IMG/VR virus record: IMGVR_UViG_3300008261_000125
Coordinates: 1 to 64,000 of that record
Source of the DNA: a virus
Length of the DNA stretch: 64,000 bases
Strand: one strand, 5' to 3'
Under the pieces are notes generated by a model, which saw only the letters and a list, made by a program, of their open reading frames with translations, did no database searches and had not been told where the DNA came from. Shown here in pieces: positions 7,241-44,100 of this stretch. Both the position numbers and the translations under genes were made by a program. Position 1 is the stretch's first letter. Every line of letters starts with the position of its first letter.

Positions 7241-7869
7241 TGGACAATACACCAGTACAACAAGGAGAAGAACTAAAACAATTTCTACAAACATTAATTG
7301 ATTCAAAACAATTACCAGGTCATGTAAGAACTATAGAGCAGGCATTTACTATTGCTCAAATGGGTAAAGAGTTAGGTTTTCCTACAATGCAGGCTTTTCA
7401 TTACATTATTCCTATTCAAGGTAAACTAAGTCTAAGTGCTAAAGCAGTAGGTGCATTATTGAGAAAAGGTAATATAAAATATATTACTAAAGAAGATGGT
7501 GTATTTGCATATCCAGATGGTAGTACAGAACAATTTGCAATAAAGAAACCTGATGGTTCAACTCCATTAGATAGAAGAACTACAATAGAATTTTACAGAG
7601 ATGGTTTAGTAGAATCTTGTTCTTTTACATGGAAAGATGCAGAAGGTCAAGGGTTAACTACTAAAGACAATTGGAAAAGAATGCCTAAAGAAATGCTTTT
7701 TGCTAGATGTTTAGCAAAGGGTGCTAATAGGATTGGTCCAGATGTGCTACTAGGTCTTTATACAGCAGAAGAAATGGCTGATACATTCTTAAGAGAATCA
7801 GATGTAAGAAGAAATGATGATGGTACTATAGCAGAAGTAATAAACATAACAGCAACAGAAGTAAAATAA
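7237..7869 (+). CDS. RecT/Redbeta-like single-strand annealing protein
   Basis: GKELG..MQA, IQGK.SLSA, NWKRMPKEML.AR and GLYTAEEM motifs. Confidence 0.75.
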   Translation: MMDNTPVQQGEELKQFLQTLIDSKQLPGHVRTIEQAFTIAQMGKELGFPTMQAFHYIIPIQGKLSLSAKAVGALLRKGNIKYITKEDGVFAYPDGSTEQFAIKKPDGSTPLDRRTTIEFYRDGLVESCSFTWKDAEGQGLTTKDNWKRMPKEMLFARCLAKGANRIGPDVLLGLYTAEEMADTFLRESDVRRNDDGTIAEVINITATEVK

Positions 7870-16272: not shown

Positions 16273-17279
16273 ATACAAAATTACAAAAGACTCCTGCTGA
16301 ATTAGAGCAGGAGTTTTACTCTAAACCTTATAACATAAGTTATTCAGGTTTAAACAAATTGGTTTATTCACCAACTCTATTTTATAATCATTACATACTC
16401 CAACAAAGAGAGGATAAAACAGATTCATATCTTGTAGATGGAAAAGTTATACATTGTTTATTGCTGGATGATGGAAGCTTTGACACTAATTTTGTTCTCT
16501 TACCCACATCTCTACCCACTGGCAACTCTAGACTTGTAATTGACAAAGTATTTGCTCAAGCAAATGACAACTCAGGAAAACTCTCAGATCATACTCAGGT
16601 TATATTGGATATTTTAAAAGAAATAAATCTACATCAATCTCTTAAGACTGATGAGCAAAGAGTTGCTAAAATAGTTACAGAAGAAAATGATAGCTATTTT
16701 GCATTTTTAGCTACAAAGGGTAATAGAGATATTATAGATTCAGAAACATTACAAAGATGTTCACAATCAGTTGATTTACTTAAGAAAAACAATAAAGTAT
16801 GTGATTTATTAGGTCTTTTCACATCTGGACTTGAAAACTTTCAAATGTTTAATGAGATAAGTTTATCTGTAGGAAGTGATGTAACAAATAGACCATTTGG
16901 ACTTAAAGGTGTAGCTGATAGTATTCAAGTTAATCATGATAAAAAAATAATTTTTATTAATGATTTAAAGACTACTAGTAAAACTATTACTGATTTTCCA
17001 GAAACAATAAATGTTTACAATTATAACCTGCAGGCAGCTATCTACTATTGGCTTGTTTCAGAAAAATTTAAGGATGTTATTACAGAAGATTGGGAGTTAA
17101 TTTTTAATTTTATTGTAATAGATAGGTATGATCAAGTATATTGTTTTGAAGTATCAAAAGAAACTATATTGAAATGGCATGATGAGCTATTAGATAAGTT
17201 AGATGAAGCCTCATGGCACTATAATAACCGTAACTACAAACTCCCTTATAGATTTGAAATTAGCCCAGTAATTTTGTAA
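16266..17279 (+). CDS. PD-(D/E)XK exonuclease (RecE/DUF3799-like)
   Basis: SYSGL, GKVIHCLLL, KGVAD...INDLKTT and YNLQAAIY motifs. Confidence 0.85.
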   Translation: MVDTKLQKTPAELEQEFYSKPYNISYSGLNKLVYSPTLFYNHYILQQREDKTDSYLVDGKVIHCLLLDDGSFDTNFVLLPTSLPTGNSRLVIDKVFAQANDNSGKLSDHTQVILDILKEINLHQSLKTDEQRVAKIVTEENDSYFAFLATKGNRDIIDSETLQRCSQSVDLLKKNNKVCDLLGLFTSGLENFQMFNEISLSVGSDVTNRPFGLKGVADSIQVNHDKKIIFINDLKTTSKTITDFPETINVYNYNLQAAIYYWLVSEKFKDVITEDWELIFNFIVIDRYDQVYCFEVSKETILKWHDELLDKLDEASWHYNNRNYKLPYRFEISPVIL

Positions 17280-27039: not shown

Positions 27040-30000
27040 TTAACAGTTTAATTTTTTGTCATCAATATCTTGTTTAGTAACAATAACCTGTCTATTTAAT
27101 ATGTCCAAAGGACTAAGTGCATCACTATTTCCAGGATTGTCATAACCAAACTCATCTTTAAGCTTGTTAGACAAATATACTGATAATTCACCACCTAAGC
27201 TAGTTGGTTGAGTAGTAGTTCTAGTAGTAAATTTCTTAAATCCTTCTATATCTTGTTTAGAACCTAATTCTTTGTACTCAGTAATAGGTTCATTTTTTAT
27301 ATCTTCAAGCATTTGCTTATAAGATTCAGCATGTCTATCTATTGTAGAATCTGGTACATTTGCCCTATTTTCTCCTCTTGCTATTTGTGTTTTAATTCTT
27401 TGTTTAGCTAATTCAGGATTTAATTCCATTAACTTATATTGAATATTAACAGTAGGTATTGCTTTTTTAATAGCTTCTATAAAAGGTAATCTTTTATCTT
27501 TAGTGAGATTAGTAGTATCAAATACAACTTGTTTACCTTGTTTAATTGCTTGTACAGCTCTATTAGCAGCTTCAATATAAATTTCTTTATCTTTAGATTT
27601 ATTATTTATATCACCTGTAAATTCAACTCTCATTGCATCAGGTTCTATAACTACTAAGTTTTCTTTAGGTAAAGATTTTATAAATGTAGATTTACCACTA
27701 CCACTTGTTCCTATAGGTAATATAACATTAGGTTGTTTAGTATCAAGATATTGAGAGTATTGTTCAGGTGTACCTATGTTAGCTAACTCAGGATTAGATT
27801 CAAATAGTTCTGATACTCCTTCTTTAACACTAGTAGATGGTTGAGTAGTTATAGGAGCTTGTTCTGATCTTATTTTTTGAAAAGGTAACTCATCTTCAAA
27901 CATGTCTGCTTTCCAGTTACCACTAGGTAAACCTTCTTCTATTCTTACAACTTCACTTCTAATTAAACTTCTAGGATACTTTTTAGCTACTTCTTTAAGT
28001 TTGGCTATTTTAGTATTGATTAAAGCTTGAGAAGTGTATTCTTTATTTACACTTTTTTTAGCTTGTTCATACTCTTCTTTTGTAATTTTAACCCAACTAG
28101 AAGATTTTGTAAAATCTTTATCTATTAATTTAGAATACCGACCTTCTATCATATCAAAAACATATCTAATATCTCCTATATTAAAAGCATTTACCCCTTC
28201 TTCACTATACTCCATTATTGAGTATTTCTTTTTAACACTATCAATACTCTCTTTTAAAGTTTCATTAGTTTGAGTTGGTTGAATACCTACTTGTTTACTA
28301 ATTTTAACTGAAAGATCATCAAATTGCCCCATATATTCTTTATAATCTAAAGCCTCTTTTTCTGTATTAAATATTGTACTTTTATTAAGATCTCCATAAG
28401 CAGATTCTACTTTTACTATATACTTAGTACCAAACTCTTTTTGTTTAATCTCAGGTTTAACTAATTTACCATATCTTTGGTCAAGGATAGAATTAATACT
28501 ATTTATAATCTTTTTAGTTTGATAAGGAATGTCTTCATCATATTCAAGTCTAAAATTACTTCCTGTTAAAGAAATACCCAGTTCATTATGGTGGTGATCT
28601 AAATTATCTACAATATTAGCTAAATTTGGTTGTACAGCATCAACATTCTTTAAAGAAGGATATTTAGAATAACTAACTCCTAATAATTCAGATTTTTTAT
28701 CTTTATTTATTTTTTCAGAAGCATCCCATACACTACCACTAAAAACATCAGCATTAGCAGCCCATAAAATGTCTTCTGATTGAGGGTAAATTTTAAATTT
28801 AATTTTACCTCCACCTCCTTCTAAATGACCTATTTTTTTATCAACAGGTTTAGTGTAAACAGAAATAGCAAACTTACCTCCAGCTTTCTCATTATCTTCT
28901 ATATGTTGCAATAAGTTTTGCATCATAAGATTTACATCAAATGAAGAATAAGCTCCTACAACAGAAACAAACTCTTGTCCTCTACTATATATTTCTTCAG
29001 GATTATATTGAATATTATTTACTTTTTTCCATTCTTCTATAATTTCTTTAGACTGTTCGTATTCTTTGTTTTTTGCTATAAAAGATTTAGCATTATGAGA
29101 TTCATTTGTTTTCTTTATCTCAATATTTGAAACATTATCCCTTTGATTTAAAGTTTCTACAAATTTTTCTGCTTCTTGTTTATTTATAAAATCTTTATTG
29201 TAATATTGAACATCATAAGGGTCTTCTGGAACATTTGGTCTAAAATTCATTTCTTCCCATGTTACCCAATGTGTTTCAGGTAATATCACGCTCTCTAAAT
29301 CAACATCTTCAACACTTTTAGCTAATTGACTAATATGATTACTAACTTCCTGATAAGTTTTAAACTTCATATTATCAGGAGTAGTATATTCTACTTCATA
29401 TCCTGGAAGTATAAGTTTAGAGTTAGAGTAAGCTAATAAATCAGCTATATCTCCAATAGTCATATTATCAGGTAATTTGTCTATTTCTACTTCTCTTTGT
29501 TTAAGAAGTGATTTAACAAACTGTTTTATTTCTTTAAGTAATCTTCTAAGAAGAGATATAAGTTTGCCATCTTTAACTGCATCAAGTTTATTAGCAGTCA
29601 TCATACCAAGAAGTTCTACAATAGCTTCTTCTTGTTGTTCTTCTAAAGAGTATCTTATAATTTCAGGACTATCCGGGTATTGCTCTATATATTCTTCTTC
29701 AGTAAAACCTTCATCCCAGTTGTCTTTTATTTTTTGAGATAACCCCTTTATATTGTAATCTCTCTTAACCCTATCTAATACTTCTTTACCTCTACCTGTT
29801 TCAAGTTCTTTGAGTAAATTTTTATATAGTGTAGGAATAGAAGCTAATTGTTGTTTAAATGTTATTTCTTCTTCTTTAGAAAATCCTTCCCATGCTTCTG
29901 CTAATTTATCTTTTTCAAATTGTGATAATTTGTTATTACTTAAAGTTTTAATAGCTCTAATAATAGGATGTCCTAATATTTCATGTATAGGAGTATCTAA

Positions 30001-30330
30001 TGTAGCATATGCTAAATTAACGACTGCTGATGTACCATCCATTAAACTTCCATATTTGTCTATATATCCATCTTGTAATTTACCTTTAAACTCTTGAGTT
30101 CTATCAGATATAAATCTAACAGGTATTCCTATTCTATCAGACATTCTAGCTGCTATATCTCTTAAAGTTTTTTCAGATGCAATTATTTCATCAGATGTAG
30201 CTAATTGATAATTTACTTTTGAATCAGATGCTGTATATCTTTTAGCATATTCTACTTCTGCATAAAGAGGATCACCTACTTCAGCTAATATTTGCTTGAA
30301 CTCTATACTATTTGGATTAACACAAATCAT
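27040..30330 (-). CDS. polyvalent virion protein: zincin-like domain plus PNK/AAA_33 kinase cassette
   Basis: TPIHEILGHP (29968-29985); PIGTSGSGKST, EPDAMR and VFDTTNL (about 27290-27735). Confidence 0.8.
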   Translation of the reverse strand: MICVNPNSIEFKQILAEVGDPLYAEVEYAKRYTASDSKVNYQLATSDEIIASEKTLRDIAARMSDRIGIPVRFISDRTQEFKGKLQDGYIDKYGSLMDGTSAVVNLAYATLDTPIHEILGHPIIRAIKTLSNNKLSQFEKDKLAEAWEGFSKEEEITFKQQLASIPTLYKNLLKELETGRGKEVLDRVKRDYNIKGLSQKIKDNWDEGFTEEEYIEQYPDSPEIIRYSLEEQQEEAIVELLGMMTANKLDAVKDGKLISLLRRLLKEIKQFVKSLLKQREVEIDKLPDNMTIGDIADLLAYSNSKLILPGYEVEYTTPDNMKFKTYQEVSNHISQLAKSVEDVDLESVILPETHWVTWEEMNFRPNVPEDPYDVQYYNKDFINKQEAEKFVETLNQRDNVSNIEIKKTNESHNAKSFIAKNKEYEQSKEIIEEWKKVNNIQYNPEEIYSRGQEFVSVVGAYSSFDVNLMMQNLLQHIEDNEKAGGKFAISVYTKPVDKKIGHLEGGGGKIKFKIYPQSEDILWAANADVFSGSVWDASEKINKDKKSELLGVSYSKYPSLKNVDAVQPNLANIVDNLDHHHNELGISLTGSNFRLEYDEDIPYQTKKIINSINSILDQRYGKLVKPEIKQKEFGTKYIVKVESAYGDLNKSTIFNTEKEALDYKEYMGQFDDLSVKISKQVGIQPTQTNETLKESIDSVKKKYSIMEYSEEGVNAFNIGDIRYVFDMIEGRYSKLIDKDFTKSSSWVKITKEEYEQAKKSVNKEYTSQALINTKIAKLKEVAKKYPRSLIRSEVVRIEEGLPSGNWKADMFEDELPFQKIRSEQAPITTQPSTSVKEGVSELFESNPELANIGTPEQYSQYLDTKQPNVILPIGTSGSGKSTFIKSLPKENLVVIEPDAMRVEFTGDINNKSKDKEIYIEAANRAVQAIKQGKQVVFDTTNLTKDKRLPFIEAIKKAIPTVNIQYKLMELNPELAKQRIKTQIARGENRANVPDSTIDRHAESYKQMLEDIKNEPITEYKELGSKQDIEGFKKFTTRTTTQPTSLGGELSVYLSNKLKDEFGYDNPGNSDALSPLDILNRQVIVTKQDIDDKKLNC

Positions 30331-33300
30331 TATTTATAACATTTATTTAGTATTTCTATAGTTTTATCTCTATCCTCGGTCATTAATCTGTTGTTGATTC
30401 TTTGGACAATTTCATCATCAGACAAATTTTTGTAAGCATTTTTATACTTATCTCTTAGTGCAACTAATATAGTAGTTCTTTCTTCATTATTGTAAAGTTG
30501 TTCAAAAGTTCTAGCTGTACCTTGTGACTTAGTAGTTATAGGAGCTTGAGTAGGTGTAGCAAGTTTAAACTCTATTTGCCAAGCTTTATCTAATTCCAGT
30601 CTTACCTTATTATTAAAATAGTCTACAGACCAACCTTCAAGCTTGGACCATTCCTTGGCTGTTTTACCAGAATCTTTTAGTGGATGAAGAGTTTTTGTTA
30701 CAACTACATCTACAGTTCTACCATCCCCAGAATCCCAAGTTATAATATCTCCAACCTTAGCAGATTTCCAATAGTCAAAAGCTTTATGATCAGAATATCT
30801 TGTAGTAGCTGTTCTTTCACCTTTAAGTATTGCATCAAATGTTGTAGAACTTGTAACATCAGATCTTTTATTTTTACCATAAGGCATTTTCATTTGACCT
30901 GATAGTTTATTAGGTGTAGTTACAGGAGCTTGTGGTTGAGAAACAGATGAATAAGCATCATTAAGTGTTTCAATAAACCAGTTTCTACCATTAGTTTCCC
31001 ATACTGTATTTTTACTAGTAGGTTGGTGGGTAGAACTTAATATCCAAGCTGATCCTCCTTGTTTGTTAATTTCAGTAACTAATCTAGGATGTTGTTGAAG
31101 TTTAGCTGTAATAATATCTACCATTAGATTATAAGTACTATTAGGACCATCATCTTTAGTAGCAGTAGATTTTAAAGCTTGATAAGCAGCTTCAGCATCT
31201 TTATAAGTTTTACCTCTAAATTCAACAGGATAAGATTTTGTAATATTTCCTTTAGATTTAGAAAGTTCAGTTGGATTAGTAAGTGCTCCTGCTAACCCTT
31301 TAGCATTAGAACTTATCTCTACACCTTTACTTACAGTAACTTGTGGTTGAGTAGACTTGCCAAATCCTTTATCAGATAAAACTATTATTTTACCTGATTC
31401 TTTGATCTTGTTAATAGCAGTGTCTATATCAGCTTTAGCTTGTTCTAATTCTGTCTCTGTTGATATATTAAGGTTTACTTGTAAGTCATTGTCATTTAAT
31501 ATAAATATTATATCAGGATTACCTTGTTTTAGCATTTGTAATTCACCTGCTGGTAAAGATTTAATTTGATTAGTAGAAGGATCCTCATAAGATTGACTTA
31601 TTACATAAACTCCATCATCAATTTTAGATACATAAGGTTTATCAAACAAGTAAGTATCTTTACCAGTAGCATCTGCTATTAATTGATTAACTGATCTTTT
31701 ATAGCTAATACCTCTACCTTTAAGTCTATTGTTTTCAGTTTGATTATTTTGTTTAAAGAACTCATAAAATCCTTCTAGTACCATGTTAGCTTTAGACTCA
31801 TTTTTATTTAAGAATGTATAGAATGCTTCAGAAGCTTTTTCCATTACAGGTCTATATCTATCATAAGGCATGATACTGTTTAATGAAAATTCACTAGAAT
31901 CCATACCACTCTGTAGGAAAGCAATCATAGGTAACTGAGCAAAGAACTCACTAATATATGCATTAGCTTGTGCTCTATTAGCTGTTTTCTCAGACACTTT
32001 CATTTCTTTAGGATTAGCTAACTTAAGCCACTCATTATAGTATTCTTCACTCAAGTTTTCATCTAACTCAGTTAAGTTTTTAATCTTAAAGTTAGTTCTT
32101 GACATGTGGTTCTTTTTACTACTTATAGAAGATGCAGAAAATTGTCTAACTAAATCAAATTGAAGTTTTAATTCAGGATAGCTTTCAATAATACTAATTA
32201 GTTTTCTAGCTGTAGTATGCTCACCAGATCTGAATAACTCATAGTTATTATAAGTATTACTTAATGCTTCATGCATTAATACATACTCATAAACTATTTT
32301 GTTTAATCTATTTGTATAATCTTCTTGACTTTCACCTTCTCTTTTAACAAATAAACTAACCCCACTATTTACAAGTCTGTTTTTAGCACTTTGAAATTCT
32401 TTTGTTCCTAATAAAGATTCTAAACTTTTTATCTTTCTTAAATATTCTCTTTCTAAACTGAACTCAATAAATGATTCAACATCATTTTGATTAAATGCAG
32501 ATGGATGAATATAAAATAATCCTCTTCTTAAATAAGCTTCATCAGATTTAGAACTAGATAAGTGATTTTCATTAGCAAAATCACTTCTTAATTGCTCAAT
32601 ACTTTTAACAGGACTGTTCTCATTAAGTAATTCACTAATAGGAGTTTGTTTGTATTCACTAGCACCTTGTTTATATTGTTTAAGAACATTAGTAAATATG
32701 TATAAACTTAAAGCATTTTTAAATCTGTTAATAAATGTTTCTTCATCTAAACCAGTTTCTTGTTTTAGAATAGCTCTTTCAATTGGATTCTCTAAAGTTT
32801 TTATTAAGAATTTATTTACTAAATCATTATCCCTTGTAGCAAATAAGTTTTTACCAAATAATGCTCTAGAAAATTCTTGAATAAAGAATGATGATATAGC
32901 ACTCTCTTCTTTGAAATGAACTTTAAGAGAAGAATCTAATGTTTTAAACTTATCAATTTTTTCAATGTCATGTATTTTAGCTTGAGCTGCAAAGTTATCA
33001 ACTGCTGATTCTGTATCTACATTAAGATATCCTTTAAGGTTATCAAACTCTTCAATTAAATCTTCAATATAAAAATACTGTAATAAACCAGCTATTTGTT
33101 CTTTATTAAATTTAAATGATTGTTTTGCTACTTCTTTTAAAGATTCTTTACTAAAAGATACATCTTTATATCTTGTATTTAATATTTTATAAAATCCAGC
33201 AATATTATTTTTTAATTGATTTCCATCAAGATCTACCATTACTCCTTTAAGTAATTCTTTTCTTGCTTTATTTTTAGCAGAAGTAGTTGTATTTCTATGT

Positions 33301-36300
33301 TTAGGACCATAGATTATTTTTGCTAAAGGTGATTTATAATTTATCTTAGATTCAACATATTTTCTAATCATAGGATTACTTACAAAATACGCTATATCCT
33401 CTATAGGAACACCTGCTTGTAATAAGAATAATGTTTTAGGAATTACTTCCATGTTACCTTGTAAGTAACTAATCCATGCATCTTTACCAACATCCACAGC
33501 ACCATTCATCAATTGAGATAAAATATCAGCTATATTATTAATTTTTTCAGCATCTGTTTTATTAGATAAAGAAATAACTTCAATCTCTTTTAATGTTTTA
33601 CTATCAATTTCTTTAGTTTTATTATAATTAAGTCTTAGTTTAATTGGAACTTTTACAGGTGATAAAACTTCACTATCACTATAGTATGGATTTTCTACTT
33701 CAAATGAATAATTCATTTTAGCACCAGCCATAGTTAACATATTAGCAAATGTATTATGTAAAGTAATAAGTCCTAAAATGTTTTTACCTGTAATATTATC
33801 TTGTTGTTTTTTAAGATTGTAAGCATACTCAGTCATTTTAGTAGGACTCACTCCACCACCTGGAGTTGATTCTCCAGTTTTAATAGATTTAGTATGATCA
33901 ACTTCATTATCTGCTTTTTGAATATCTTTTTTGAGTGTATTAGATAAAGGTTTAGTTAAATGAGTATCATTAGGTTGCATTAATGAGAAAGCCATCTCTG
34001 GCATTTCCATAACCCCAATAATATTATCTATAAATTTATTTTGAATAGCAGCAGTAAAGTTTCTCTTATGTTCTTTTAAATTAGAAAGTTCATTATAAGC
34101 TCTACTTAATTCACTATCTTTTGATATTAATTCAGTAATTAAATTTTCAATTTCAGGATATTTTTCTGAATCAAATCCTTTAATTTGTTTAGATAAAATT
34201 TGATAAGATTCTGGAAGATTCTTTTTAATAAACTCTTGTTCCTTTGGATTACTTAAAGTTTTTAATAACTCTTCATTATTATAAGTAGTATAAGCAAAGA
34301 ACTTTTCTTTAACAAGTCTTTTATGTTTACTTTCTTTTTTAATACTATTTCTAAAGTCATCAAGATCTTCTTTAATAGTTAATTTATCAGCTTTTAAATC
34401 TTTTAATTTAGTTTTTAATTCTTGAATTTTAGCATCTAATTCTTCTGGTGTTTTATAAGTATCACCTGCAGATGCTGGTAAGAATTCATGTATTTGAACA
34501 AACTCAACTGAGTTAGGTCCTTGTGTAGGAATCCTTACACCAGTCATTCTAATAGAGTTTTCATTTTCTTTTAACCAAGCTTCATTCTTAATCATTTCAT
34601 TAAGTCTTATGAAACTTGCATCATAGTCTAATACATATTTAATCTCAGATTCTGTATCAGGGTTCTTTACATAAACAGCTACTTTATCTGTAGTCTTTTT
34701 ACCATTAACATAGTAATTAGTAGAGAATAGATTTTGATAGTTATCTGTTAAGGCAACTTTAACCTTTGCACCTATAGTCTCTTTACTACCATTTGTACTA
34801 ACAATATATCCACTTAAACCATTAGTACCAAAGTCATCATATTCTTTTGTTTGTTCAATAGTAGGTTTTTTAAATGATTGTGTAAGAGCAGAAGAAACTT
34901 GTACTAAAGGTTCACCTTTAATTTTAAGTTTAATCAATCTATTATTAATAACAGACATTAAAAGTTTTTCAAGTCTAGCAGCTTGAGGACTTAAACTTAA
35001 ATCAATTTTCTTGTTAGAACTATATTGAACAAAGTCTATTTCATGATCACTATATCCTTGACTTTTTAATATATCAACAACATAAGTAATCATGTCATCA
35101 ATATTACCTTCTGGTAAACCATTTACTTCAGTCCAACCCATTTCTTCTAATAGGTCTTTTCTCATGTACTCAGTTAACCTTTTAAGTTGCTTATATACTT
35201 GTTGTGTATTTTTATAAGCATTACTGTTTTTTAGCTTTTCAGCTTTAGTTAAACTGTTCCATTCCTCTTTAGTACCTTTATAATCTATAGGGACACCATT
35301 ATCAAATAACCCAACATTAAACACTTTACGTAACTGAGTAGATAAAACACTCTTTCCTTTAAAGTATTTATTAACTTCTGTTTGATTTTTTAAGTATTCA
35401 AAGTAAATAGGATTAGGAGTAAAGTTAATATCTTGATATTCTTTGATATTACTTGTATCACCTTCATAAATACTATCACCATTAGTTTTGTCATCAGCTC
35501 TTAAGTAAGATCTCTTAGCTCCAGAATCAAATAATGCATAGTCAATGTTTTGAGCCATCATAGCTAAGTGCATTTTTTCTAAAGGTAATCCTTTAATTAC
35601 ACTAGGAATTAATGGTAATAAACTGAATTTATCAATACTTTGTATAGGATAGTTCTTTAATTCAGTTACTAATGGTCCTGCATACTGTAATTTATATACT
35701 GGGAATAAATCAGTTAACTCTTCAGGTGTAAGACTTTCTCCTCTAAGTTCTTTTTGGTAAGCAGCTTCTTGTTGTTCTGTCCAACTATTTTCAAGATTTT
35801 TTAAGATTCTATATGAGTCAAATGATATCCATCCTTGACCATCACCATCTTTAATTCCTGTATATGGTTGTAATAAACCTCCAGTAATATTAGTTTCAGA
35901 ACCACCTTTACCATATAAAGCTTCGTTAATATCACCTTGATATTTTTTTTCTTTTAACCAATGTCTGAACATTTCAGCATAATCATCTAAGTAAATACTA
36001 TCTACTTTACTCTCTTTGATTATTGCTTTGTTACCTTTACCTGTATATAATCTTGACTCAGTTTGATTTGGATCTCTTCTTACTAATTTACCACTCTTAA
36101 CTAGACTATCTTCATATGGTCTTTTTACATGAGTATTAATAAATAGTTTTGCTAGTTCATCAGTAGGGAAGATTAGACCAGAAGAGTTATAAGTAGGAAC
36201 CCTTTTTAAACTCTCGTCATTGATATGATTAAATTGAAATCCATCACCAAGCTCTAACAATATAACTTCATTAGCATGTAAAGAACTGTTTATAGCAAAT

Positions 36301-39300
36301 GAATATAATAAAGCATCTTTAATACTATCAGTTGTAGCTACTTGTCCTTCAGTAAGATGTTCTTCAGCAATTGATCTTAAGAAATTAGGAACATTATTAC
36401 CAAAAACTTTATTATAATTATTAACTTCTAATGATTTTTTTGAAGTTTCAAAATAGTTAATAATTTCTTTTTCAATTTCTTTTCTTAACTCAAGGTTTTT
36501 ATTTAATAAACTATTTAAAGTAGTTTCATCATTTAACTGACTAGCATACTCATTAATAAGTTTATTTTTTAATTCACCATCTTTAGTATTTAAGATATCA
36601 TCAAAATAATCAAACTTAATACCTTTTTCATAAAAGTCTTTAGCTTTAGAATAGTACTCTTTATTGTCTTTGATTTTTTGAATTCTTCTTAACTCACCTT
36701 CTAACTTAGGAATCATTATGTCCATTACTTTATCAAATGGATTATATCCTAATAAGTAATTACCATTAATATCTTTTAAGAAAGCTTGAGTATCTACATA
36801 TAAATGGTTATTCTTTTTAAGTGAATAAGTGTTAAGTCTTTTTACTTTAACTCCAGTATAAGTACTTTTTTCACCATGTCTTACAGCTTCAATATATCCA
36901 TCTTTTAACATAGAAGCAAAGTCAGTAATAAACTTATCAACTTTGGTCATTGAACCGTGTGAAACACCATTACTATCATCAGATAAATCTTCATATTGAG
37001 AACCAGTTAAATCTACTAATTCAATACCATTAAGATTATTTCTCTTACCTGTAGTGTCAAATAATGAATTCATTATAACACTACCTATAACATGAGGGTT
37101 GTTTTCTTTAACTAAATGAGGAACATAACTATAAGCACCACTTTTTAATTCATCTAAAGAACCTGCTTTCTTTAAAGCATATACAATTTGAGTTAAAGTT
37201 GTATTTAATGAGAATGCACTTTTCTTACTTTTTTCTGCAGTAAGTTTCATCCTACTAATGTTTTCTGTAGAGAACTCAGCATCAATCTTAGCTAATGTAT
37301 TAACATTAGAAGCTTGATTATCTATAGCACCCTCAATAAACTCACCAGTAGCTAGTTCAATTTTAATCTTATTATGTTTTTGACCTAAGAAATTAACTAT
37401 GTTAGTAATAGGTAATAGGTTTCTTTTTGCTAAGATGTCTTTGTTAGCTTCTGCTAAACCAATAGCATTAACAATATAATCAAAAGCTTTTGTAGTATCA
37501 TCATTAATAGCTTTTCTAACATCATAGTTATCTTCTAAATACATACCTATTGCATTTAAGAATGGAATCTTTAATGATTCATCTTTAATGAAATATTTAG
37601 TAATACCTTCTTTACCTATAGCAGAAGATGTTAAAAATTCTTTAACTACTTTACTTAAGTTAAGAGTATTTTCTTTATTAGCATTTACAGTAACAAATGG
37701 ACCTGATTCAGTAGAGAACTTAGCTGGCCATACTTTATTTTTAATTGCTGAGTGATCAGCTGATACTTTACCTACTACAAAACTAACTTGAGTTTGATTA
37801 TCAATGGTTTCTTCTTTAAATTTAGAAGTAACTAAATCTTCTCTTTCTAAGTTCAATGATCTGAATACACCCATCCAAATTTTAGATGCACCAGCACCTT
37901 TATCAGCACCCATAACCACAGTAGGATCACCTAGTTTTTCTAACAACTGAGCAAATAAAGGTGAAGTATTTTTAACTGATGCTAGTTTTTTGTATAACTC
38001 ATCAACTCTTTTTTCACCACCAACTTTATCTATTAAATTGTTAAAGAACTGTTTATGATTAATAGGCTCAGGAAATCCTAGACTATTTAATATATTAACT
38101 CTTTCTCCATTTACAACTTCTTGTTTTAATAAAGTCTTTAGGATGTATGTACAATCAGCAGTAGCAAGTTCATATGATTCAGTTTCATTACCACCTTCTC
38201 TTCCAGATTTAGATAATGGAGACTCATAGTTCTCATCAATCATTTCATTAAATGAACTGTTTTGTAAATGGTAAGTAATAAGATCTAACTTATCACCTTT
38301 TCCATTTAAAGAATTAGTTGCATCACCATAGTTATCTAAAGCTTTTATTAACAATAAAACATTGTTTCTTTTATATTTTCTTTCAATCTTATCCCACTTA
38401 GTTTTATTATTTTTATCTTTAGCATAATCTGCTTCAAACTCTTTTCTTAAAACATCTAATCTAGATGCTAATTTCTTTTTAATTGCAGAATTATATAATA
38501 AAGTTAATCTCTCTTGTCCTTTTAAGATATTAGCTGCAGCATCATATTTACCTTTTAATAAATAACCTGTAGTTATATCAGATATAATACCATCCATACT
38601 CTTAACAAGTAATGATGCTTCTACTGGAGTAAATATTACAGTACCATCTTTAGCAATTATACCAGAGTTTAATACACCAAACTCAGCATTGTCCATACTT
38701 GGAGTATACATGTTTAATTGTTCAGGACTTTCTGCTGTATATAACTGATTAAACATTTCAGATAATATACCTTGAGAACCAGGATTAGAATAAACATTAA
38801 TATCAGTTGTTCCTTTAAATAATGTTTTTAAGAATTTCCAAACTCTATCAAAGATTCTTGAGAATATATTTGATTTTTCATTTTCAGTTTTGAACTTACC
38901 ATTGTTCATGGCATATACTCTGAACTCTTCTGCTATAAATTCTTCTAACTCTTTTCTAGAAGCTTCAGTAAATTCTACTTTAACTGTTTGGATGTTATTA
39001 CTTTCATTCTTTCTGGTAACAGTGAAGGTGCCTGGTAATTGTCCTACAGCTTCATATAGTTTATTTCTATCAGCTTTAGATAAATATATCTGACTGAATG
39101 CATGCCAAGCCTCATGGTAATTATGAGTGTAATCTGAACCTGCAAACAAAGTAATAGTAGCATTACTAAAACTAGCCCAAGCATCTGAGTTAACTAAATT
39201 AAAAGCTTCTTTTAAAGTAATCAATGGTTTACCATTAGAGTCTTTAGCTTTAGATAATGCACTTTTTTCCCACCATGTTTTTGCTTTAGCTTTCTGTTCT

Positions 39301-41192
39301 GGAGTAGCAATACTTTCAATTAACTTAGATCTTAATAAACTTTCTAGTTTATCTTCTTCATCAGTATCTTCTTGTATAATTGTTTTAGCATTATTAACTA
39401 CTTCTTTTACTTCTTGTTCTACTACTGCTGTTTCATTAGTAGGTTCAAAACTGAAATATCCATTAGCTACTAATGGTCTTTCTGTTGTAGAATCAAAAGC
39501 AATTCTGGGGATCATGTTTTGTAAAACATAATCTTTAATGTAATTAATAGGTTGTACACTTACTACACCATCTTTAATATTAAATCTTTCAATGGTTACT
39601 TTATTTTTTAAATCAGTAGAGAAGTTAGCAAATAGTTTTGCACCCAAAGTTTTTACTAGCTGTTCTTTAGCTTGTACTTTATCTGATAAATCTAACTGCT
39701 GTCCATTTAAACTAATAACAATTTCATTGTTTACTATTGAAAGATTAAATACAGATCTATCTAATTTACTAGCATAGTTATTAAAATAACTTTGTCTATC
39801 AGCTGGAGATAATGGTTTACCATTTTCATATACTAAATCATCAATCAGTACAGAAATTAAACTATCAAACAATGATCTATCACCTGCAAGAAGGTTTCTA
39901 CCTTTTAATGATATAGGTTTATCAATATTGTTTATTTTAATAGATGGTAAGTTTAATGTTTTAACAACACCTTTTACCATCATATCAGCATATGCTATTG
40001 CAATACTTTCAATTTCAGTATCTGTAAGATTAAATTGACTTAGTGTTTTTTCAACTAAAGATTTGTATTGTTTTAATTTTTCAGGATCAGTTATTTTCTT
40101 AAATGTCTCATCAGTATTTTCATGATAACCTTTTTTACCACCTGTTATATCTAACAAAATTGGTTGGTTATCCATTACAGATTTGGATATAAGATCACTT
40201 TGTTTTTTTTCTTCATTAACCATTTGGTTAATTTTAGAAATAAGTTCATTTCTTAATCTTGAGTATTCAAGAGGATCATTTTTAGATTGCTCTCTTAAAG
40301 CTGTCTCATTACTTTTTAATAACTCTTCTTTAAGTGCTTTAACTTTAGCATCAGAAGAGTCTTTCATATAGAAGTAAACTATTTTACCATCTTCTTTAGA
40401 TGTAATCTCACCTTTACTATTAAAGTATAAAAACTCACCTTTGTTATTAGTTAATGCTAGAATTATTCTCTTAGAACTTAAAGTAGCTCCAGGATATATA
40501 TTTTTTTCTAAATCAGGTAATGTATTTTCTACTATTGGTTTTAATTTAAAACCTTTATGTCCACTATATTCTACATTAGAGTAATTAGCATTATCAGTTG
40601 TATTAGCTTCTAATACTTTAGTTAATACATTATAGTAAAAGTTTTTACCAGCATTTGTTTTAGTAAATATAGGAAGACCTGATACTTCTTCTAACTGTTG
40701 ACCTGTTGAGTTTTGTAAAGATAAACTAGTTAATATTTTATTAAGAACTAATTCTAATATTTGATTTTCATTAGATACTTCAGACTGAGTTTCAGGAGTG
40801 GTAACACTATTTTCTAATATGACTTTCATACTAGTTTTAGTACCAACTTTAATGTAATTAGCAATTTCTTTTAAAGGATCCTCTGACTTATTAACTAATA
40901 ACTCAAAATTTCTTACAGCTTTTAAATCAAAGTTTTTGTCTATTAACTGAGTTAGTAATTTAGGATTGTCTTCAATAACTTGAAAAAACACTGTAGGAAT
41001 AACTGCTGCTATTCCTAAAGACTTAGCTTGGTCTTTGTTTTTCTCATAAGCAACATAATAAACATCTCTTACTACTTCTAATATTTTAAAAGGTTTATCA
41101 GGAGTCTTTAAGTTGTTTAAAATCTTATTGTAGACCTGATTAGCAAGAACTTTAGCTAATTCTTTATTTTCATCTAAATTACAAATACTCAT
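30330..41192 (-). CDS. virion-packaged crAss-like DNA-dependent RNA polymerase with zincin, NADAR and ASCH domains
   Basis: About 3620 aa; DGQGWISFDSYR, STQLRK, RIPTQ...FLP...GD and SQLMNGAVDVGKD; YHEAWH (39102-39116); C-terminal NADAR and ASCH domains; catalytic DxDxD not found. Confidence 0.8.
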   Translation of the reverse strand: MSICNLDENKELAKVLANQVYNKILNNLKTPDKPFKILEVVRDVYYVAYEKNKDQAKSLGIAAVIPTVFFQVIEDNPKLLTQLIDKNFDLKAVRNFELLVNKSEDPLKEIANYIKVGTKTSMKVILENSVTTPETQSEVSNENQILELVLNKILTSLSLQNSTGQQLEEVSGLPIFTKTNAGKNFYYNVLTKVLEANTTDNANYSNVEYSGHKGFKLKPIVENTLPDLEKNIYPGATLSSKRIILALTNNKGEFLYFNSKGEITSKEDGKIVYFYMKDSSDAKVKALKEELLKSNETALREQSKNDPLEYSRLRNELISKINQMVNEEKKQSDLISKSVMDNQPILLDITGGKKGYHENTDETFKKITDPEKLKQYKSLVEKTLSQFNLTDTEIESIAIAYADMMVKGVVKTLNLPSIKINNIDKPISLKGRNLLAGDRSLFDSLISVLIDDLVYENGKPLSPADRQSYFNNYASKLDRSVFNLSIVNNEIVISLNGQQLDLSDKVQAKEQLVKTLGAKLFANFSTDLKNKVTIERFNIKDGVVSVQPINYIKDYVLQNMIPRIAFDSTTERPLVANGYFSFEPTNETAVVEQEVKEVVNNAKTIIQEDTDEEDKLESLLRSKLIESIATPEQKAKAKTWWEKSALSKAKDSNGKPLITLKEAFNLVNSDAWASFSNATITLFAGSDYTHNYHEAWHAFSQIYLSKADRNKLYEAVGQLPGTFTVTRKNESNNIQTVKVEFTEASRKELEEFIAEEFRVYAMNNGKFKTENEKSNIFSRIFDRVWKFLKTLFKGTTDINVYSNPGSQGILSEMFNQLYTAESPEQLNMYTPSMDNAEFGVLNSGIIAKDGTVIFTPVEASLLVKSMDGIISDITTGYLLKGKYDAAANILKGQERLTLLYNSAIKKKLASRLDVLRKEFEADYAKDKNNKTKWDKIERKYKRNNVLLLIKALDNYGDATNSLNGKGDKLDLITYHLQNSSFNEMIDENYESPLSKSGREGGNETESYELATADCTYILKTLLKQEVVNGERVNILNSLGFPEPINHKQFFNNLIDKVGGEKRVDELYKKLASVKNTSPLFAQLLEKLGDPTVVMGADKGAGASKIWMGVFRSLNLEREDLVTSKFKEETIDNQTQVSFVVGKVSADHSAIKNKVWPAKFSTESGPFVTVNANKENTLNLSKVVKEFLTSSAIGKEGITKYFIKDESLKIPFLNAIGMYLEDNYDVRKAINDDTTKAFDYIVNAIGLAEANKDILAKRNLLPITNIVNFLGQKHNKIKIELATGEFIEGAIDNQASNVNTLAKIDAEFSTENISRMKLTAEKSKKSAFSLNTTLTQIVYALKKAGSLDELKSGAYSYVPHLVKENNPHVIGSVIMNSLFDTTGKRNNLNGIELVDLTGSQYEDLSDDSNGVSHGSMTKVDKFITDFASMLKDGYIEAVRHGEKSTYTGVKVKRLNTYSLKKNNHLYVDTQAFLKDINGNYLLGYNPFDKVMDIMIPKLEGELRRIQKIKDNKEYYSKAKDFYEKGIKFDYFDDILNTKDGELKNKLINEYASQLNDETTLNSLLNKNLELRKEIEKEIINYFETSKKSLEVNNYNKVFGNNVPNFLRSIAEEHLTEGQVATTDSIKDALLYSFAINSSLHANEVILLELGDGFQFNHINDESLKRVPTYNSSGLIFPTDELAKLFINTHVKRPYEDSLVKSGKLVRRDPNQTESRLYTGKGNKAIIKESKVDSIYLDDYAEMFRHWLKEKKYQGDINEALYGKGGSETNITGGLLQPYTGIKDGDGQGWISFDSYRILKNLENSWTEQQEAAYQKELRGESLTPEELTDLFPVYKLQYAGPLVTELKNYPIQSIDKFSLLPLIPSVIKGLPLEKMHLAMMAQNIDYALFDSGAKRSYLRADDKTNGDSIYEGDTSNIKEYQDINFTPNPIYFEYLKNQTEVNKYFKGKSVLSTQLRKVFNVGLFDNGVPIDYKGTKEEWNSLTKAEKLKNSNAYKNTQQVYKQLKRLTEYMRKDLLEEMGWTEVNGLPEGNIDDMITYVVDILKSQGYSDHEIDFVQYSSNKKIDLSLSPQAARLEKLLMSVINNRLIKLKIKGEPLVQVSSALTQSFKKPTIEQTKEYDDFGTNGLSGYIVSTNGSKETIGAKVKVALTDNYQNLFSTNYYVNGKKTTDKVAVYVKNPDTESEIKYVLDYDASFIRLNEMIKNEAWLKENENSIRMTGVRIPTQGPNSVEFVQIHEFLPASAGDTYKTPEELDAKIQELKTKLKDLKADKLTIKEDLDDFRNSIKKESKHKRLVKEKFFAYTTYNNEELLKTLSNPKEQEFIKKNLPESYQILSKQIKGFDSEKYPEIENLITELISKDSELSRAYNELSNLKEHKRNFTAAIQNKFIDNIIGVMEMPEMAFSLMQPNDTHLTKPLSNTLKKDIQKADNEVDHTKSIKTGESTPGGGVSPTKMTEYAYNLKKQQDNITGKNILGLITLHNTFANMLTMAGAKMNYSFEVENPYYSDSEVLSPVKVPIKLRLNYNKTKEIDSKTLKEIEVISLSNKTDAEKINNIADILSQLMNGAVDVGKDAWISYLQGNMEVIPKTLFLLQAGVPIEDIAYFVSNPMIRKYVESKINYKSPLAKIIYGPKHRNTTTSAKNKARKELLKGVMVDLDGNQLKNNIAGFYKILNTRYKDVSFSKESLKEVAKQSFKFNKEQIAGLLQYFYIEDLIEEFDNLKGYLNVDTESAVDNFAAQAKIHDIEKIDKFKTLDSSLKVHFKEESAISSFFIQEFSRALFGKNLFATRDNDLVNKFLIKTLENPIERAILKQETGLDEETFINRFKNALSLYIFTNVLKQYKQGASEYKQTPISELLNENSPVKSIEQLRSDFANENHLSSSKSDEAYLRRGLFYIHPSAFNQNDVESFIEFSLEREYLRKIKSLESLLGTKEFQSAKNRLVNSGVSLFVKREGESQEDYTNRLNKIVYEYVLMHEALSNTYNNYELFRSGEHTTARKLISIIESYPELKLQFDLVRQFSASSISSKKNHMSRTNFKIKNLTELDENLSEEYYNEWLKLANPKEMKVSEKTANRAQANAYISEFFAQLPMIAFLQSGMDSSEFSLNSIMPYDRYRPVMEKASEAFYTFLNKNESKANMVLEGFYEFFKQNNQTENNRLKGRGISYKRSVNQLIADATGKDTYLFDKPYVSKIDDGVYVISQSYEDPSTNQIKSLPAGELQMLKQGNPDIIFILNDNDLQVNLNISTETELEQAKADIDTAINKIKESGKIIVLSDKGFGKSTQPQVTVSKGVEISSNAKGLAGALTNPTELSKSKGNITKSYPVEFRGKTYKDAEAAYQALKSTATKDDGPNSTYNLMVDIITAKLQQHPRLVTEINKQGGSAWILSSTHQPTSKNTVWETNGRNWFIETLNDAYSSVSQPQAPVTTPNKLSGQMKMPYGKNKRSDVTSSTTFDAILKGERTATTRYSDHKAFDYWKSAKVGDIITWDSGDGRTVDVVVTKTLHPLKDSGKTAKEWSKLEGWSVDYFNNKVRLELDKAWQIEFKLATPTQAPITTKSQGTARTFEQLYNNEERTTILVALRDKYKNAYKNLSDDEIVQRINNRLMTEDRDKTIEILNKCYK

Positions 41193-41194
41193 AA

Positions 41195-44100
41195 TTAACA
41201 AATGTTATCTTGTATATCTTTTTTAAGTTCATCTTCTGATTTCTCTGTGTAAGTTATATTAACATTTTTAATAGCTGATTGATTTTGTACTGCTGTATCA
41301 ATATCCTCTTTACTATTTTGTATTCCTTGGATGTCAATTATTGATTTAATTTCATTAGGAATGTTTTCTGTTTTTACACTGATATCACCAGATAATCCTG
41401 ATAAAGATACAGAATTTTCTTTTATTTCCTTTATTATATATCTACCATTTTTCTCTGGATTATCAACTGATTCATACATAACTTCATAATTTCTGTCTTT
41501 AGCAACCTGAAGACTGTTAATGTTAATATTCTGATTTAATGTTTCTATAGTAGCTTGTTTACTCTCTGGTACTTCTACTTTAGCTTTTTCATTTTTAGGT
41601 GTACTCTCTCTTATATATGTAAGAACATTTCCATTATATAATACTTCAATTACATCAGTAGAAGGTTTGTCACCAACTGCTTTTTTAATCTTTTGTATAG
41701 TAACCTTTTCTCCAATAGGTAACTTGTTATCTTTAAAGAATTGAGTTACTCTTACTACTCTACCATCATCTAACACTACATGATATGAACTCTCATCAGC
41801 TGCATTAGGATATACACCTTTTTGAAATACACCACTAAGTTGCTCACCTGGCTTAAGTTCATCAACAATAGTTTTAAATTTCTTTTCTATTGATAACTCA
41901 TTAAATTCTCCTACAGGTTTACCTTTTAAAGCTTTTAGTTCTGCATCATATCTAGTATTGATTTTAGTTACTTTGTTACCTAAGTGAGTACTTCTGTACT
42001 TTTCACCTTTTTCTTCATATCTTCTTTGGTCAAAAGTATTGTAACCTATTTTTGGTTCTAAAGATGTTTCAACTGTTTCAATAACTTTTCCATCTTTAAC
42101 AATAGCAAGTTTTACATCTTTCCCTTTTACTTGCTCATTAGTATCATAAACATTTCCAGCAGAATCAACTACATATAACTTTTTACCATCTTGCCTATTT
42201 TGTGCAGAAAGAAAATCTTGTTCTTGTTGTACATTTTTAAACTTAACAAATACAATTAAGTCATTAGGTTCATTTTGTTCTCCAGTAGCTGTTTTAAATC
42301 TTTGTGTTCTACCATCAGGTAACACAGTATAAACACTTCCTTTAGCTGTTTCAAAACTTTCTATATCAGCTTTCTTATCAGAAACAGTACCTTCTAAAGC
42401 AGCTAGTTCTGCATCGTAATCTCTATATGCAATAGCTTCTGCTTTTCTTATTCTATTACTAGCAAGATTTTCAAATAGTTCAGAATCAGTAAATCCTTCT
42501 GAACCCATTGCTTTTCCTGTATCTGACACCACAGCTATTATCCAAGTCCATAATCCATTTTCTTTTCTTTTAGCCCTCCCAACTTTTACAGTACCATCAG
42601 ATTGTTTTTTACTTATAAGAATTTCATCTTTTCCTTCAATATCTTCAATTTGAACTGGTCCAGAAGGTTTAACTTCTACAAATTGTCTATCAGACCCGTT
42701 AAAAAGAGTTGTTTTATTTAAATTTTTTAAATCTTCTTGTCTTCTCTCTTCTATATCAGCTTTCTTAGCTTTTAAATCTGTAGTAGTTTCGGTTCCAGTT
42801 GGTACTGGAGCTGCTACTTCTAATTTAGAAGGGATGTATTTATTTACAATCTCTTTAAATTCATTATAATTAATCTTTGTTTTACTTGCTCTTGGTTCTT
42901 CTGTTAATGAGGTAATATTACCATCTAAATCTTCTTTTGTTTTAAAAGCTATAAGTTCTAAGTTAGTTACTTTTATTCCTGTAGTATTCTCTAATAAGTT
43001 TTTATATAGAGAAAGCTGTAGGGAATATTTTTCTTTCTTAGCAGACTTATCACTTTTGTTTCCAAAGTATTCCCATTTTGAACTAGTTTTCATGTCATAT
43101 ATTTTGTATTCTCCACCAGGAGTAACTACAAGTAAATCCATTTCACCAGCTATAGTTTGAGGCTTACCATTTACTTCATTAGTTGTAACACCAGATAACA
43201 CTAATCCACTAGCAACTACAACTTCATTTTGTTCAGCTAATTGTTGATCAAATTCAATTAATTTAGTTCTTAAATTGTTAAAAGCTGTCTCACTCATATT
43301 TGATGGTTTTATAAGTTCAACACCCTCAAAATAATCACGGACTAATTTATCTACAACATTACCTCTAATTGTAGTTTCTTCATAAATATATTTTTCAAAT
43401 AGCTTTTTAAAATTATCATTTGAAGTATTAGACTTAAGTTCTTCTTTAAATAGTTTTAATTTTCTACCATTAAATTGTTTATTAAATAACTCTTGAGCTT
43501 TTTGTTTAGCTTCATTATCTTTATTATCTGCTAAATCTTTTTTAATAAATTCAAATATACTGTCTACATATGCTTCTCTATTTTTAGCATTTGCTTTAAC
43601 AGTATCATCTTCTTGAGCTTTTATATAAGCATCAAGAATAGGAGCAGCAGATTTTTCAAATACAGCAAACTTGCTATAATCTGGATAATTTTCTTCTAAG
43701 ATTTGATCAATAAGTTTTGTTACTCTAGTGTCTTTCTTTTCACCATTGATAATATAATTATTATCAACTTTATCTTTATTAACTGTTCTCTTAGATAAAG
43801 CTTTAACAAGAGCTAATGCATTTTCTTGTTCAGGTGTCATTTTAATTGACAATCTGATTTTATAGTTAAGTGCTTGTTTAACTTTATTTAATTCATTTAA
43901 AACACTAGGTTCAGTTTTATATTTTTCTAAAAGCTCTTTATGTTTATTTTCAAGTTCCTTAAGTGTTAAGTTTAAATACTCTTGAAACTCAGCTGTTTTT
44001 TCATTTAGTATTTCTTTTTCTAATTGTTTTTTGAAATCATCAACAATATTTTTACCAGCTGGAAACTGTGTAGAAAATTCTTCAATAGTCATTTCATCAC

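Follow-up and report, generated by a model that had tools for sequence, protein, structure and literature searches.

Two giant proteins encoded next to each other in a phage genome, P0002 and P0001, appear to end in strings of single-domain enzyme cassettes joined by short in-frame linkers rich in threonine, glutamine and proline (T/Q/P). The best reading of these linkers, and a probable one, is that they act as portable joints at which cassettes are exchanged in frame by ordinary homologous recombination. The stretch analyzed, hereafter the window, comprises 64,000 nucleotides (nt), positions 1 to 64,000 of the IMG/VR virus record IMGVR_UViG_3300008261_000125, and its putative cassettes are a NADAR-like module, an ASCH-like module and a polynucleotide kinase (PNK)-like kinase held in the shell of an ART-PolyVal module. 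The linkers would belong together as a family, with a 21-nt DNA element, ACTCAACCATCTACTAGTGTT, as the canonical form, which is kept letter for letter in a large pool of environmental crAss-like phages. What carries this reading, and can be seen in the sequences compared, is the anatomy of the two proteins, the conservation of the element at the DNA level, the breakpoints that fall at it, and the recent sharing of cassettes between divergent phages.

A 21-nucleotide linker conserved as DNA

An exact-DNA scan of IMG/VR with ACTCAAYYATCTACTAGTGTT found the element, letter for letter, at 85 sites in 67 phage stretches, and all 85 sites are in one reading frame and lie between recognizable modules of giant open reading frames (ORFs). 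Up to seven copies occur in one ORF, spaced 132-325 amino acids (aa) apart, i.e. by one domain. The modules downstream of the element, 122 in number, fall into at least 48 families, and the Pfam families among them include ART-PolyVal, AlkB-like 2OG-Fe(II) oxygenase, DUF7831 (several families), circularly permuted YpsA SLOG, and NADAR. Judged by these domains, the element-bounded cassettes appear to be the repertoire of the polyvalent proteins (PMC5512222). Among the 49 carrier records examined, all 14 with a completeness of at least 90% have a related terminase, two of them with terminal repeats. The TerL of the carriers is 57-66% identical to that of the window in 19 records and 25-30% identical in seven; because carrier terminases are only 25-66% identical to the window's, the same 21-mer appears to be common to deeply diverged phages. 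The element had no copy in 596 Gb of bacterial and archaeal genomes, which provides no host clue from prophages.

The conserved stretch is about 24 nt long, with information content at background 2-3 nt beyond either edge. In an unbiased set, obtained by a peptide-level search in loci fetched by protein queries and involving no DNA preselection, the Q[PSL]STSV junctions have identical synonymous codons in 13 cases out of 13, including codons that are not preferred (CCA, 38% usage; AGT, 35%; TCT, 39%). Copies with three or fewer mismatches show 9, 10 and 7 distinct substitutions at codon positions 1, 2 and 3, respectively, and these comprise 7 synonymous (27%) and 19 non-synonymous changes, compared with a random expectation of 17/63. 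Altogether the linker has four DNA versions in 87 contexts, a single one being synonymous, while control peptides have many more versions for their number of contexts: 12 in 17 for the Walker A peptide GTSGSGKST, 7 in 14 for LPFQK, and 6 in 7 for ALTNPTEL. Because codon 3 of the element alternates between Pro, Ser and Leu with synonymous sites fixed, the substitution spectrum is random and control peptides vary synonymously, it is the DNA of the element, and not the peptide, that appears to be conserved.

Linkers and modules of P0002 and P0001

All repeat copies in the window are on the coding (minus) strand, in frame, and inside the T/Q/P-rich linkers of the two ORFs, which are STQPQVTVS, SSVSQPQAPVTTP and ATPTQAPITT in P0002, and QAPITTQPSTSV and TTTQPTS in P0001. 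The features of both proteins are as follows.

30330-41201, minus strand: P0002, 3623 aa, with the cassettes in its final 340 residues
31329-31355, minus strand: linker STQPQVTVS of P0002, with ACTCAACCA in common with the canonical element
30951-31328, minus strand: NADAR-like module of P0002, aa 3292-3417
30912-30950, minus strand: linker SSVSQPQAPVTTP of P0002, which separates the NADAR-like module from the ASCH-like one and holds the QAPVTT variant (30915-30932)
30561-30911, minus strand: ASCH-like module of P0002, aa 3431-3547
30531-30560, minus strand: linker ATPTQAPITT of P0002, between the ASCH-like module and the C-terminal tail, holding copy 2 of the QAPITT 18-mer (30531-30548)
30333-30530, minus strand: C-terminal tail of P0002, 66 aa, ending ..ILNKCYK
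27040-30330, minus strand: P0001, 1096 aa, following P0002, with the cassettes in its final 270 residues
27862-30330, minus strand: conserved P0001 body, aa 1-823, containing HEILGH and ending ELPFQKIRSE
27844-27861, minus strand: QAPITT 18-mer AGTAGTTATAGGAGCTTG, copy 1, at the end of the conserved P0001 body, overlapping the canonical element by 3 nt
27826-27846, minus strand: canonical 21-nt element ACTCAACCATCTACTAGTGTT, encoding TQPSTSV, T829-V835 of P0001
27733-27825, minus strand: N-terminal shell of the ART-PolyVal module, KEGVSELFESNPELANIGTPEQYSQYLDTKQ
27271-27732, minus strand: P-loop kinase core, PNK-like, a cassette of exactly 462 nt (aa 867-1020) with the Walker A motif GTSGSGKST
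27229-27270, minus strand: C-terminal shell of the ART-PolyVal module, ELGSKQDIEGFKKF
27199-27219, minus strand: linker TTTQPTS of P0001, between the C-terminal piece of the ART shell and the tail, reading like the canonical element minus one codon
27043-27198, minus strand: C-terminal tail of P0001, 52 aa, ending ..DDKKLNC

The window therefore contains one canonical copy and four degenerate ones, and ACTCAACCATCTACTAGTGTT at 27826-27846 is the sole perfect copy in the 95.6-kb genome. An earlier note, made by reading the sequence, had drawn attention to four repeats, and all are where it placed them: AGTAGTTATAGGAGCTTG is exact at 27844-27861 and 30531-30548, a near-copy of it is found at 30915-30932 (one mismatch over the 17 nt considered in that note, two over 18 nt; 0.02 expected), CTTGTGGTTGAG has copies at 30929 and 31340 (0.21 expected; two copies are reached in 2 of 100 shuffles), and GGTTGAGTAGT has copies at 27206 and 27839. 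In the gene block, there are four exact repeats of at least 18 nt, compared with a mean of 0.5 in codon-shuffled versions. The identity of the QAPITT 18-mer alone is suggestive, not decisive, because identical codons have P = 0.023 when the peptide is given twice. As a general handle for domain exchange, this 18-mer did not hold: its 16 matches in IMG/VR are about the chance number and are in unrelated proteins, so a role as a pan-phage linker was rejected, and the operative repeat appears to be the adjacent 21-nt TQPSTSV element with its degenerate relatives. The QAP(I/V)TT form is private to this genome, where it is present in three linkers of the window, one of them also holding the canonical copy, as would be expected if one version of the linker had spread locally in this lineage.

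P0002 contains HEAWH zincin-like, NADAR-like and ASCH-like parts, and P0001 contains the HEILGH body and the PNK-like kinase. The three domain names proposed for the cassettes in the earlier note fared unequally. The kinase core matches AAA_33 (4.5e-16, 59.9 bits for a cut-off of 27) and PHROG 505 polynucleotide kinase (1.8e-13), and among solved structures it is closest to the C. thermocellum Pnkp kinase domain (PDB 4JST, 1.9e-5); its assignment as a PNK-like P-loop kinase is a solid one, with the activity being predicted. It also has a Zeta-toxin-like match (1e-7), and substrates other than 5'-OH polynucleotides are possible. The ASCH label stands, marginally, as the module passes the PF04266 profile with 22.0 bits for a cut-off of 21.2, and two of seven homologues match. 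The NADAR label fails by Pfam, since the window copy has no match to the PF08719 profile and 2 of 10 homologues reach only E = 0.024, but the fold is suggestive of it. A structure model built on 10 homologues (pLDDT 74.8) was compared with 48,161 chains (VIA), and the three best matches were three NADAR structures: 8BAU with Z 6.6 (113 aligned residues, root-mean-square deviation 3.6), 2B3W with 6.2, and 8BAT with 4.5, the next being 3.5 and all Z remaining below 8. The top Foldseek match of the model is YbiA at E = 0.45, which is not significant. The family alignment shows NADAR-like motifs, among them E-x-A-Y-Q-x-x-K, H-P-x-L, G-G, and W-E..G-x-N-x-F. Altogether, the modeled structure is suggestive of a NADAR fold for this module.

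Breakpoints and probable cassette exchange in related phages

Homologues of P0001 were found at 21 IMG/VR loci with about 55% identity, and the match ends at aa 820-823 in nearly all of them. The common part closes with (D/E)ELPFQK, and what follows differs, being either a short tail or other domains that span hundreds to thousands of residues. The check suggested in the earlier note, whether domain content in related loci changes at the repeats, has thus come out in its favor, with changes at the window's linker across these 21 loci and an architecture that is not fixed. A longer form of the closing motif, (D/E)ELPFQK(I/V)(P/S)S (27862-27900 in the window), is kept in 17 relatives, directly before the variable part.

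Positional counterparts of P0002 have another C-terminal domain set in each relative, and its modules are found singly elsewhere: the NADAR-like module alone in related loci L024-L027 (70-87% aa identity) and the ASCH-like module alone in L028-L031, L067, L079, and L081 (58-71% identity), with matches that end at linkers in both cases. In L027 and L114/L131, the same NADAR-like module comes after the canonical element, which in L114/L131 takes the position of the STQPQVTVS linker. The ASCH-like module is also present in the Suoliviridae cr272_1 and cr114_1. In cr272_1 (L001, NC_055903.1) it is located among other, unidentified domains, and in cr114_1 (L002, NC_055897.1, about 11900-12400) its halves are swapped, the C-terminal half coming first. 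The giant ORFs of both phages contain in-frame stops under table 11, as expected for stop-codon recoding.

Flanks were compared for all pairs of 84 distinct sites, a flank being counted as shared at 75% identity or more over 150 nt. One flank only was shared by 42 pairs and both flanks by no non-identical pair, with the edge of the element marking the end of similarity. In many pairs, identity reaches 96-100% over 420 nt on one side, and the other side is random (about 32%). Moreover, comparison of whole loci by blastn detected single linker-to-linker cassettes of 430-610 nt that are 96-99% identical between divergent contigs, the remainder being 70-77% identical for L127/L145 and L112/L127 and without any other similarity for L145/L168, L123/L159, L128/L159, and L110/L138. 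A further case is provided by L129 and L168, which are 97% identical over 12 kb and carry one cassette and two different ones, respectively, between the same flanks (L129:756-1206 versus L168:11293-12298). Their downstream break is exactly at the element, and their upstream break is at another T/Q/P linker (NQPTQPPINGNK in one, TGQPTQPPVSGDR in the other); therefore, more than one linker family serves as a junction. On this sequence evidence, single domains appear to have been swapped recently, and exactly at the element, between distantly related phages. The in-frame swap of domains at short linker DNA that was proposed in the earlier note is borne out to this extent, by the P0001 homologues that break at the linker, the single modules found elsewhere, the 96-99% identical cassettes, and the L129/L168 pair.

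The peptide IQPTQT of the window's P0001 (aa 683, about 28267-28284) resembles the upstream swap-point linker of L129/L168.

Mobility of the kinase core and its shell

The kinase core is found in 16 other host-protein contexts, with 81-91% nt identity in 15 of them and 73% in the sixteenth, and is always 462 nt long. The wrapper VKEGVSELFESNPEL..QYSQYLDT / LGSKQDIEGFKKF that had been noticed around it is real and corresponds to the N- and C-terminal shell of ART-PolyVal modules. The N-terminal part of this shell, KEGVSELFESNPELANIGTPEQYSQYLDTKQ, occurs in more than 50 contigs (66-93% nt identical overall, 79-93% in the closest 5-10), where an ART-PolyVal core normally comes after it, and the shell encloses such a core in more than 40 contigs; L033/L034 and the window have the 462-nt kinase core in place of the ART core. 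The core of the shell modules in relatives scores 6.7e-6 against ART-PolyVal PF18760 (27.4 bits, under the cut-off of 31.2). Shell peptides are unusually uniform as DNA: FESNPEL has 6 versions in 26 contexts, the commonest being used 20 times, and DIEGFK has 8 versions in 32 contexts, the commonest being used 19 times. These peptides may be further homology handles.

The surroundings of the core differ among the other contexts. In L039, it forms a plain linker-to-linker cassette between TQPSISV and TQLSTSV, a direct repeat matching at 22 of 24 nt. In L046 (5998-6459), it is inside a P0001-like HEILGH zincin, at a place where the window's P0001 has a different segment of 45 aa; in L038 and L041 (6004-6465 in each), it is inside another domain, between GWFRSDE and TRRILEVQSDLFQK; and in L035 (6112-6573) and L036, it is inside the first helix pair of the shell. 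The cores inserted in L046, L038, L041, and L035 are 85-87% nt identical to the window's, and none of these four insertion sites has a linker element. Because the kinase core sits inside a zincin domain and the ART shell without a linker, a second, linker-independent insertion route exists for it, in which recombination could be illegitimate or directed by homology other than that of the linker. The linkers, presented in the earlier note as the swap points, appear to be so for the cassettes that they bound, but the kinase core also moves into domains without them.

Mechanism and rival explanations

Homologous recombination is the mechanism suggested by these patterns. Two copies of the element, whether carried by co-infecting phages or by a single genome, would recombine and thereby replace, add or remove whole domains, and the ORF would stay open on exchange because every cassette has the same frame relative to the element. 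Cassettes would move together with their flanking linkers, repeated exchange would keep the linker DNA uniform through concerted evolution, and mutated linker copies would drop out of exchange. Since cassettes would carry their linkers and exchange would homogenize them, the element could be conserved at the DNA level without selection on the peptide. RecET/Red pairs, made up of a RecT-like protein and an exonuclease VIII-like protein, work with short homology. Genes for both are present in the window and lend support, as context only, to exchange by recombination. The proteins themselves are likely to be packaged and injected, as gene position and the crAss001 precedent suggest (PMC10172136), and the types of domain that they contain point to putative roles in counter-defense.

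Several points weigh against exchange by homologous recombination at the linker. The evidence is all comparative, with recombination events inferred from contigs, and the related loci are IMG/VR metagenome assemblies. Most of the 85 sites were fetched by DNA, leaving the 13-site subset alone as unbiased for the codon argument. With 21 nt, the element is short for RecA-type recombination, and no recombinase common to the carriers was found, a RecT-like gene being present in only 1 of the 14 complete element-bearing genomes. The window has a single canonical copy, and the evidence for swaps comes from lineages other than that of the window. The linker-independent route taken by the kinase core counts on the same side.

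Alternatively, the linkers could serve as ordinary flexible peptide spacers rich in T/Q/P, or as a site for a protease or a modification, with DNA identity arising from the peptide and codon bias. Codon bias in the window is strong (CAA 88%, ACT 59%), the P value of 0.023 for identical QAPITT codons is not extreme, a repeat of at least 18 nt is expected about 0.5 times in the codon-shuffled block, and other phages do not employ the QAPITT 18-mer as a linker, all of which is in agreement with such spacers. However, CCA, AGT, and TCT are non-preferred codons and are the same at all 13 unbiased sites, codon 3 varies (P/S/L) with synonymous sites constant, the substitution spectrum is random with respect to coding, and peptides under constraint, such as Walker A and LPFQK, have many synonymous versions. 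The breakpoints of the 96-99% identical cassettes, moreover, are at the element. Spacers shaped by peptide and codon usage are thus a highly unlikely explanation. Codon bias alone had been named in the earlier note as what might refute its proposal; it keeps some force for QAPITT, where the identity is only suggestive, and is contradicted for the 21-nt element by the 13 of 13 identical non-preferred codons. It is also very hard to believe that the mosaic results from metagenome misassembly at shared repeats. The related loci all come from metagenome contigs, for which assemblers could be misled by shared cassettes of about 450 nt; but a 21-nt repeat is below the k-mers usual in final assembly, the shared cassettes are 96-99% and not 100% identical, a long ORF continues in the same frame across each of the 85 junctions, different samples gave contigs with the same junctions (e.g. 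L114/L131 and L009/L140), and 14 carriers are judged to be genomes at least 90% complete, two with terminal repeats. Assembly artifacts are unlikely because ORFs are preserved, cassettes are non-identical, and junctions recur across samples.

It has also to be considered whether the element is the recognition site of a dedicated enzyme, a site-specific recombinase or homing-type endonuclease, in an integron-like system of domain cassettes. Conservation with sharp edges, over about 24 nt and at every position, would be explained in this way, as would the presence of the element in phages with 25-30% identical terminases and its absence from the 596 Gb of cellular genomes scanned; it contains a 6-nt palindrome, ACTAGT, and the window has two HNH endonuclease genes (11570-13467). 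However, ACTAGT is the only symmetry of the element, with no dyad beyond it, and no integrase-like gene was noticed, no full integrase search having been made. None of the enzymes tested co-occurs with the element (RecT-like in 1 and HNH in 10 of the 14 complete carriers). The HNH homologue in question, that of the second gene, follows phylogeny rather than the element, because it is missing from the carriers with divergent TerL. In addition, degenerate linkers and non-linker insertion sites occur, and concerted evolution by ordinary recombination explains uniform DNA without any dedicated enzyme. A site recognized in this way is therefore unlikely, and there is equally little to be expected of the wider idea that the element is the target of a dedicated phage nuclease, recombinase or template-switching activity that would bring domain cassettes into any protein with the element, forming an in-frame "domain integron" or homing system common to the whole crAss-like pool.

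Comparison with known systems

Polyvalent proteins are giant proteins of phages and conjugative elements that combine many small enzyme domains and are mosaic between relatives (Iyer et al. 2017, PMC5512222). The proteins described here resemble them in their ART-PolyVal, zincin-like, NADAR, SLOG, 2OG oxygenase, and kinase domains and in their mosaicism, and both are believed to reach the host cell together with the DNA. Several unrelated enzyme domains are present per polypeptide, and so is the signature ART-PolyVal shell, the ART core of which is replaced by the kinase in the window. The published work is concerned with architectures only; the word "linker" is absent from it, and recombinational cassette variability is mentioned as a possibility for one kinase system (PMC5512222). 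A junction defined at the DNA level and recent swaps of single cassettes are, by comparison, features of the present case only.

In T-even phages, natural and laboratory exchanges occur in or near conserved boxes of gp37 and glycine-rich motifs of gp38 (Trojet et al. 2011, PMC3157838). These tail fibers and adhesins likewise have short conserved in-frame sequences between variable segments. However, their motifs build the core structure of a single domain and are under constraint as peptides, whereas the linker is a spacer between independent enzyme domains, is constrained as DNA, and is shared across phages whose terminases are only 25-66% identical. Promoter-stem-loop cassettes (PeSLs) of T4-type phages have been described as portable homology (Arbiol et al. 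2010, PMC2839356; Comeau et al. 2014, PMC4122927). They are similar in that short conserved DNA repeats flank exchangeable modules, but PeSLs are intergenic and regulatory and shuffle whole genes, while the present repeat is coding and in frame and shuffles domains within one ORF. What the linkers have in common with homology-mediated exchange is a short conserved sequence flanking variable modules, with natural breakpoints at that sequence. In polymorphic toxins such as CdiA and Rhs, a conserved pre-toxin motif marks the point at which C-terminal toxin cassettes are swapped. The likeness lies in a conserved boundary followed by a variable payload that is replaced by recombination; the toxins, however, vary at one C-terminal tip and are directed against rival cells, whereas here there are many internal junctions and the payloads are phage enzymes, and neither immunity genes nor silent orphan arrays of the polymorphic-toxin type were seen. 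In Bacteroides phage crAss001, mass spectrometry placed cargo and RNA-polymerase-associated proteins (gp45-gp50) in the virion, and their ejection has been proposed (Bayfield et al. 2023, PMC10172136). P0002 and P0001 likewise come from large ORFs that close the structural block, with divergently transcribed replication genes as neighbors, but the packaging of the window proteins is a prediction, no solved chain matched P0001, P0002 or the 2044-aa ORF outside the kinase, and P0002 has no DxDxD.

No published description of such a linker system was found in the literature. What appears to be new is the combination of a DNA-constrained spacer, many junctions per protein, a wide crAss-like pool, and single-domain swaps at 96-99% identity. 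Polyvalent or cargo proteins are believed to encounter host defenses before any other phage protein, and their fast domain change was previously described just as "mosaicism". The linker would give this change a concrete rule, in which a standard connector of 21 bases is kept as DNA and enzyme domains are exchanged there between otherwise dissimilar phages. Scanning metagenomes for the element and reading the sequence between copies would provide a payload-cassette finder, and the module families already found, at least 48, constitute a natural catalogue for counter-defense tests. Whether selection for exchangeability maintains short coding repeats also becomes open to a direct test, and a route to chimeric cargo proteins in laboratory phage-host pairs is suggested.

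Genome and locus setting

The genome is a single contig of 95,567 bp with 29% guanine plus cytosine. Its crAss-type proteins were recognized by PHROG matches (TerL, 2e-58; portal, 4.9e-87; major capsid protein, 2.4e-30), and the closest named TerL is from Crassvirales, at merely 24-26% identity; judged by these proteins, the source appears to be a distant crAss-like phage. Against named phages, blastn of the region gave a single match of 105 nt, to cr114_1. Ten large minus-strand ORFs form the giant-ORF block (21320-63806), and P0002 and P0001 are located in the cargo / RNA-polymerase block of the genome. The opposing plus-strand replication module encodes a helicase, a primase, a DNA polymerase, a RecT-like protein, an exonuclease, and two HNH endonucleases. 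Those of its genes that were considered above are listed here.

7237-7869, plus strand: RecT-like single-strand annealing protein, a candidate short-homology recombination function, given as context only
11570-13467, replication module: two adjacent HNH endonuclease genes (PHROG 4645 and 1314)
16266-17279: exonuclease VIII-like gene, which pairs with the RecT-like gene as a candidate short-homology recombination function

Full-length P0002 and P0003 had no match in Pfam or PHROGs searches, and a PDB search with P0001, P0002, and the 2044-aa ORF (P0003 was not searched) gave no solved-chain sequence match outside the kinase domain. P0002 was considered as a virion RNA polymerase, which is unsupported: the DxDxD motif was looked for in it and is absent, no solved RNA polymerase was matched, and there is no PDB sequence match.

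Giant proteins of this phage group close with a short acidic tail, helical and about 50-70 aa long, which has a Cys within its last 1-6 residues. Such tails end in ..KKLNC and ..LNKCYK in the window and in ..LRTC, ..AKNC, ..NNCK, ..ENCL, ..FLKCN, and ..KKCL in relatives, among them L004, L006, L007, L012, L016, L018, and L023. The Cys-ended tail may be a packaging or anchoring signal. The remaining exact direct repeats of at least 18 nt in the window are found at 42359-42377/42749-42767 (19 nt), 54912-54946/58502-58536 (35 nt), and 55322-55343/55343-55364 (22 nt). All three are also inside giant minus-strand ORFs, and other junction repeats may work in the same manner.

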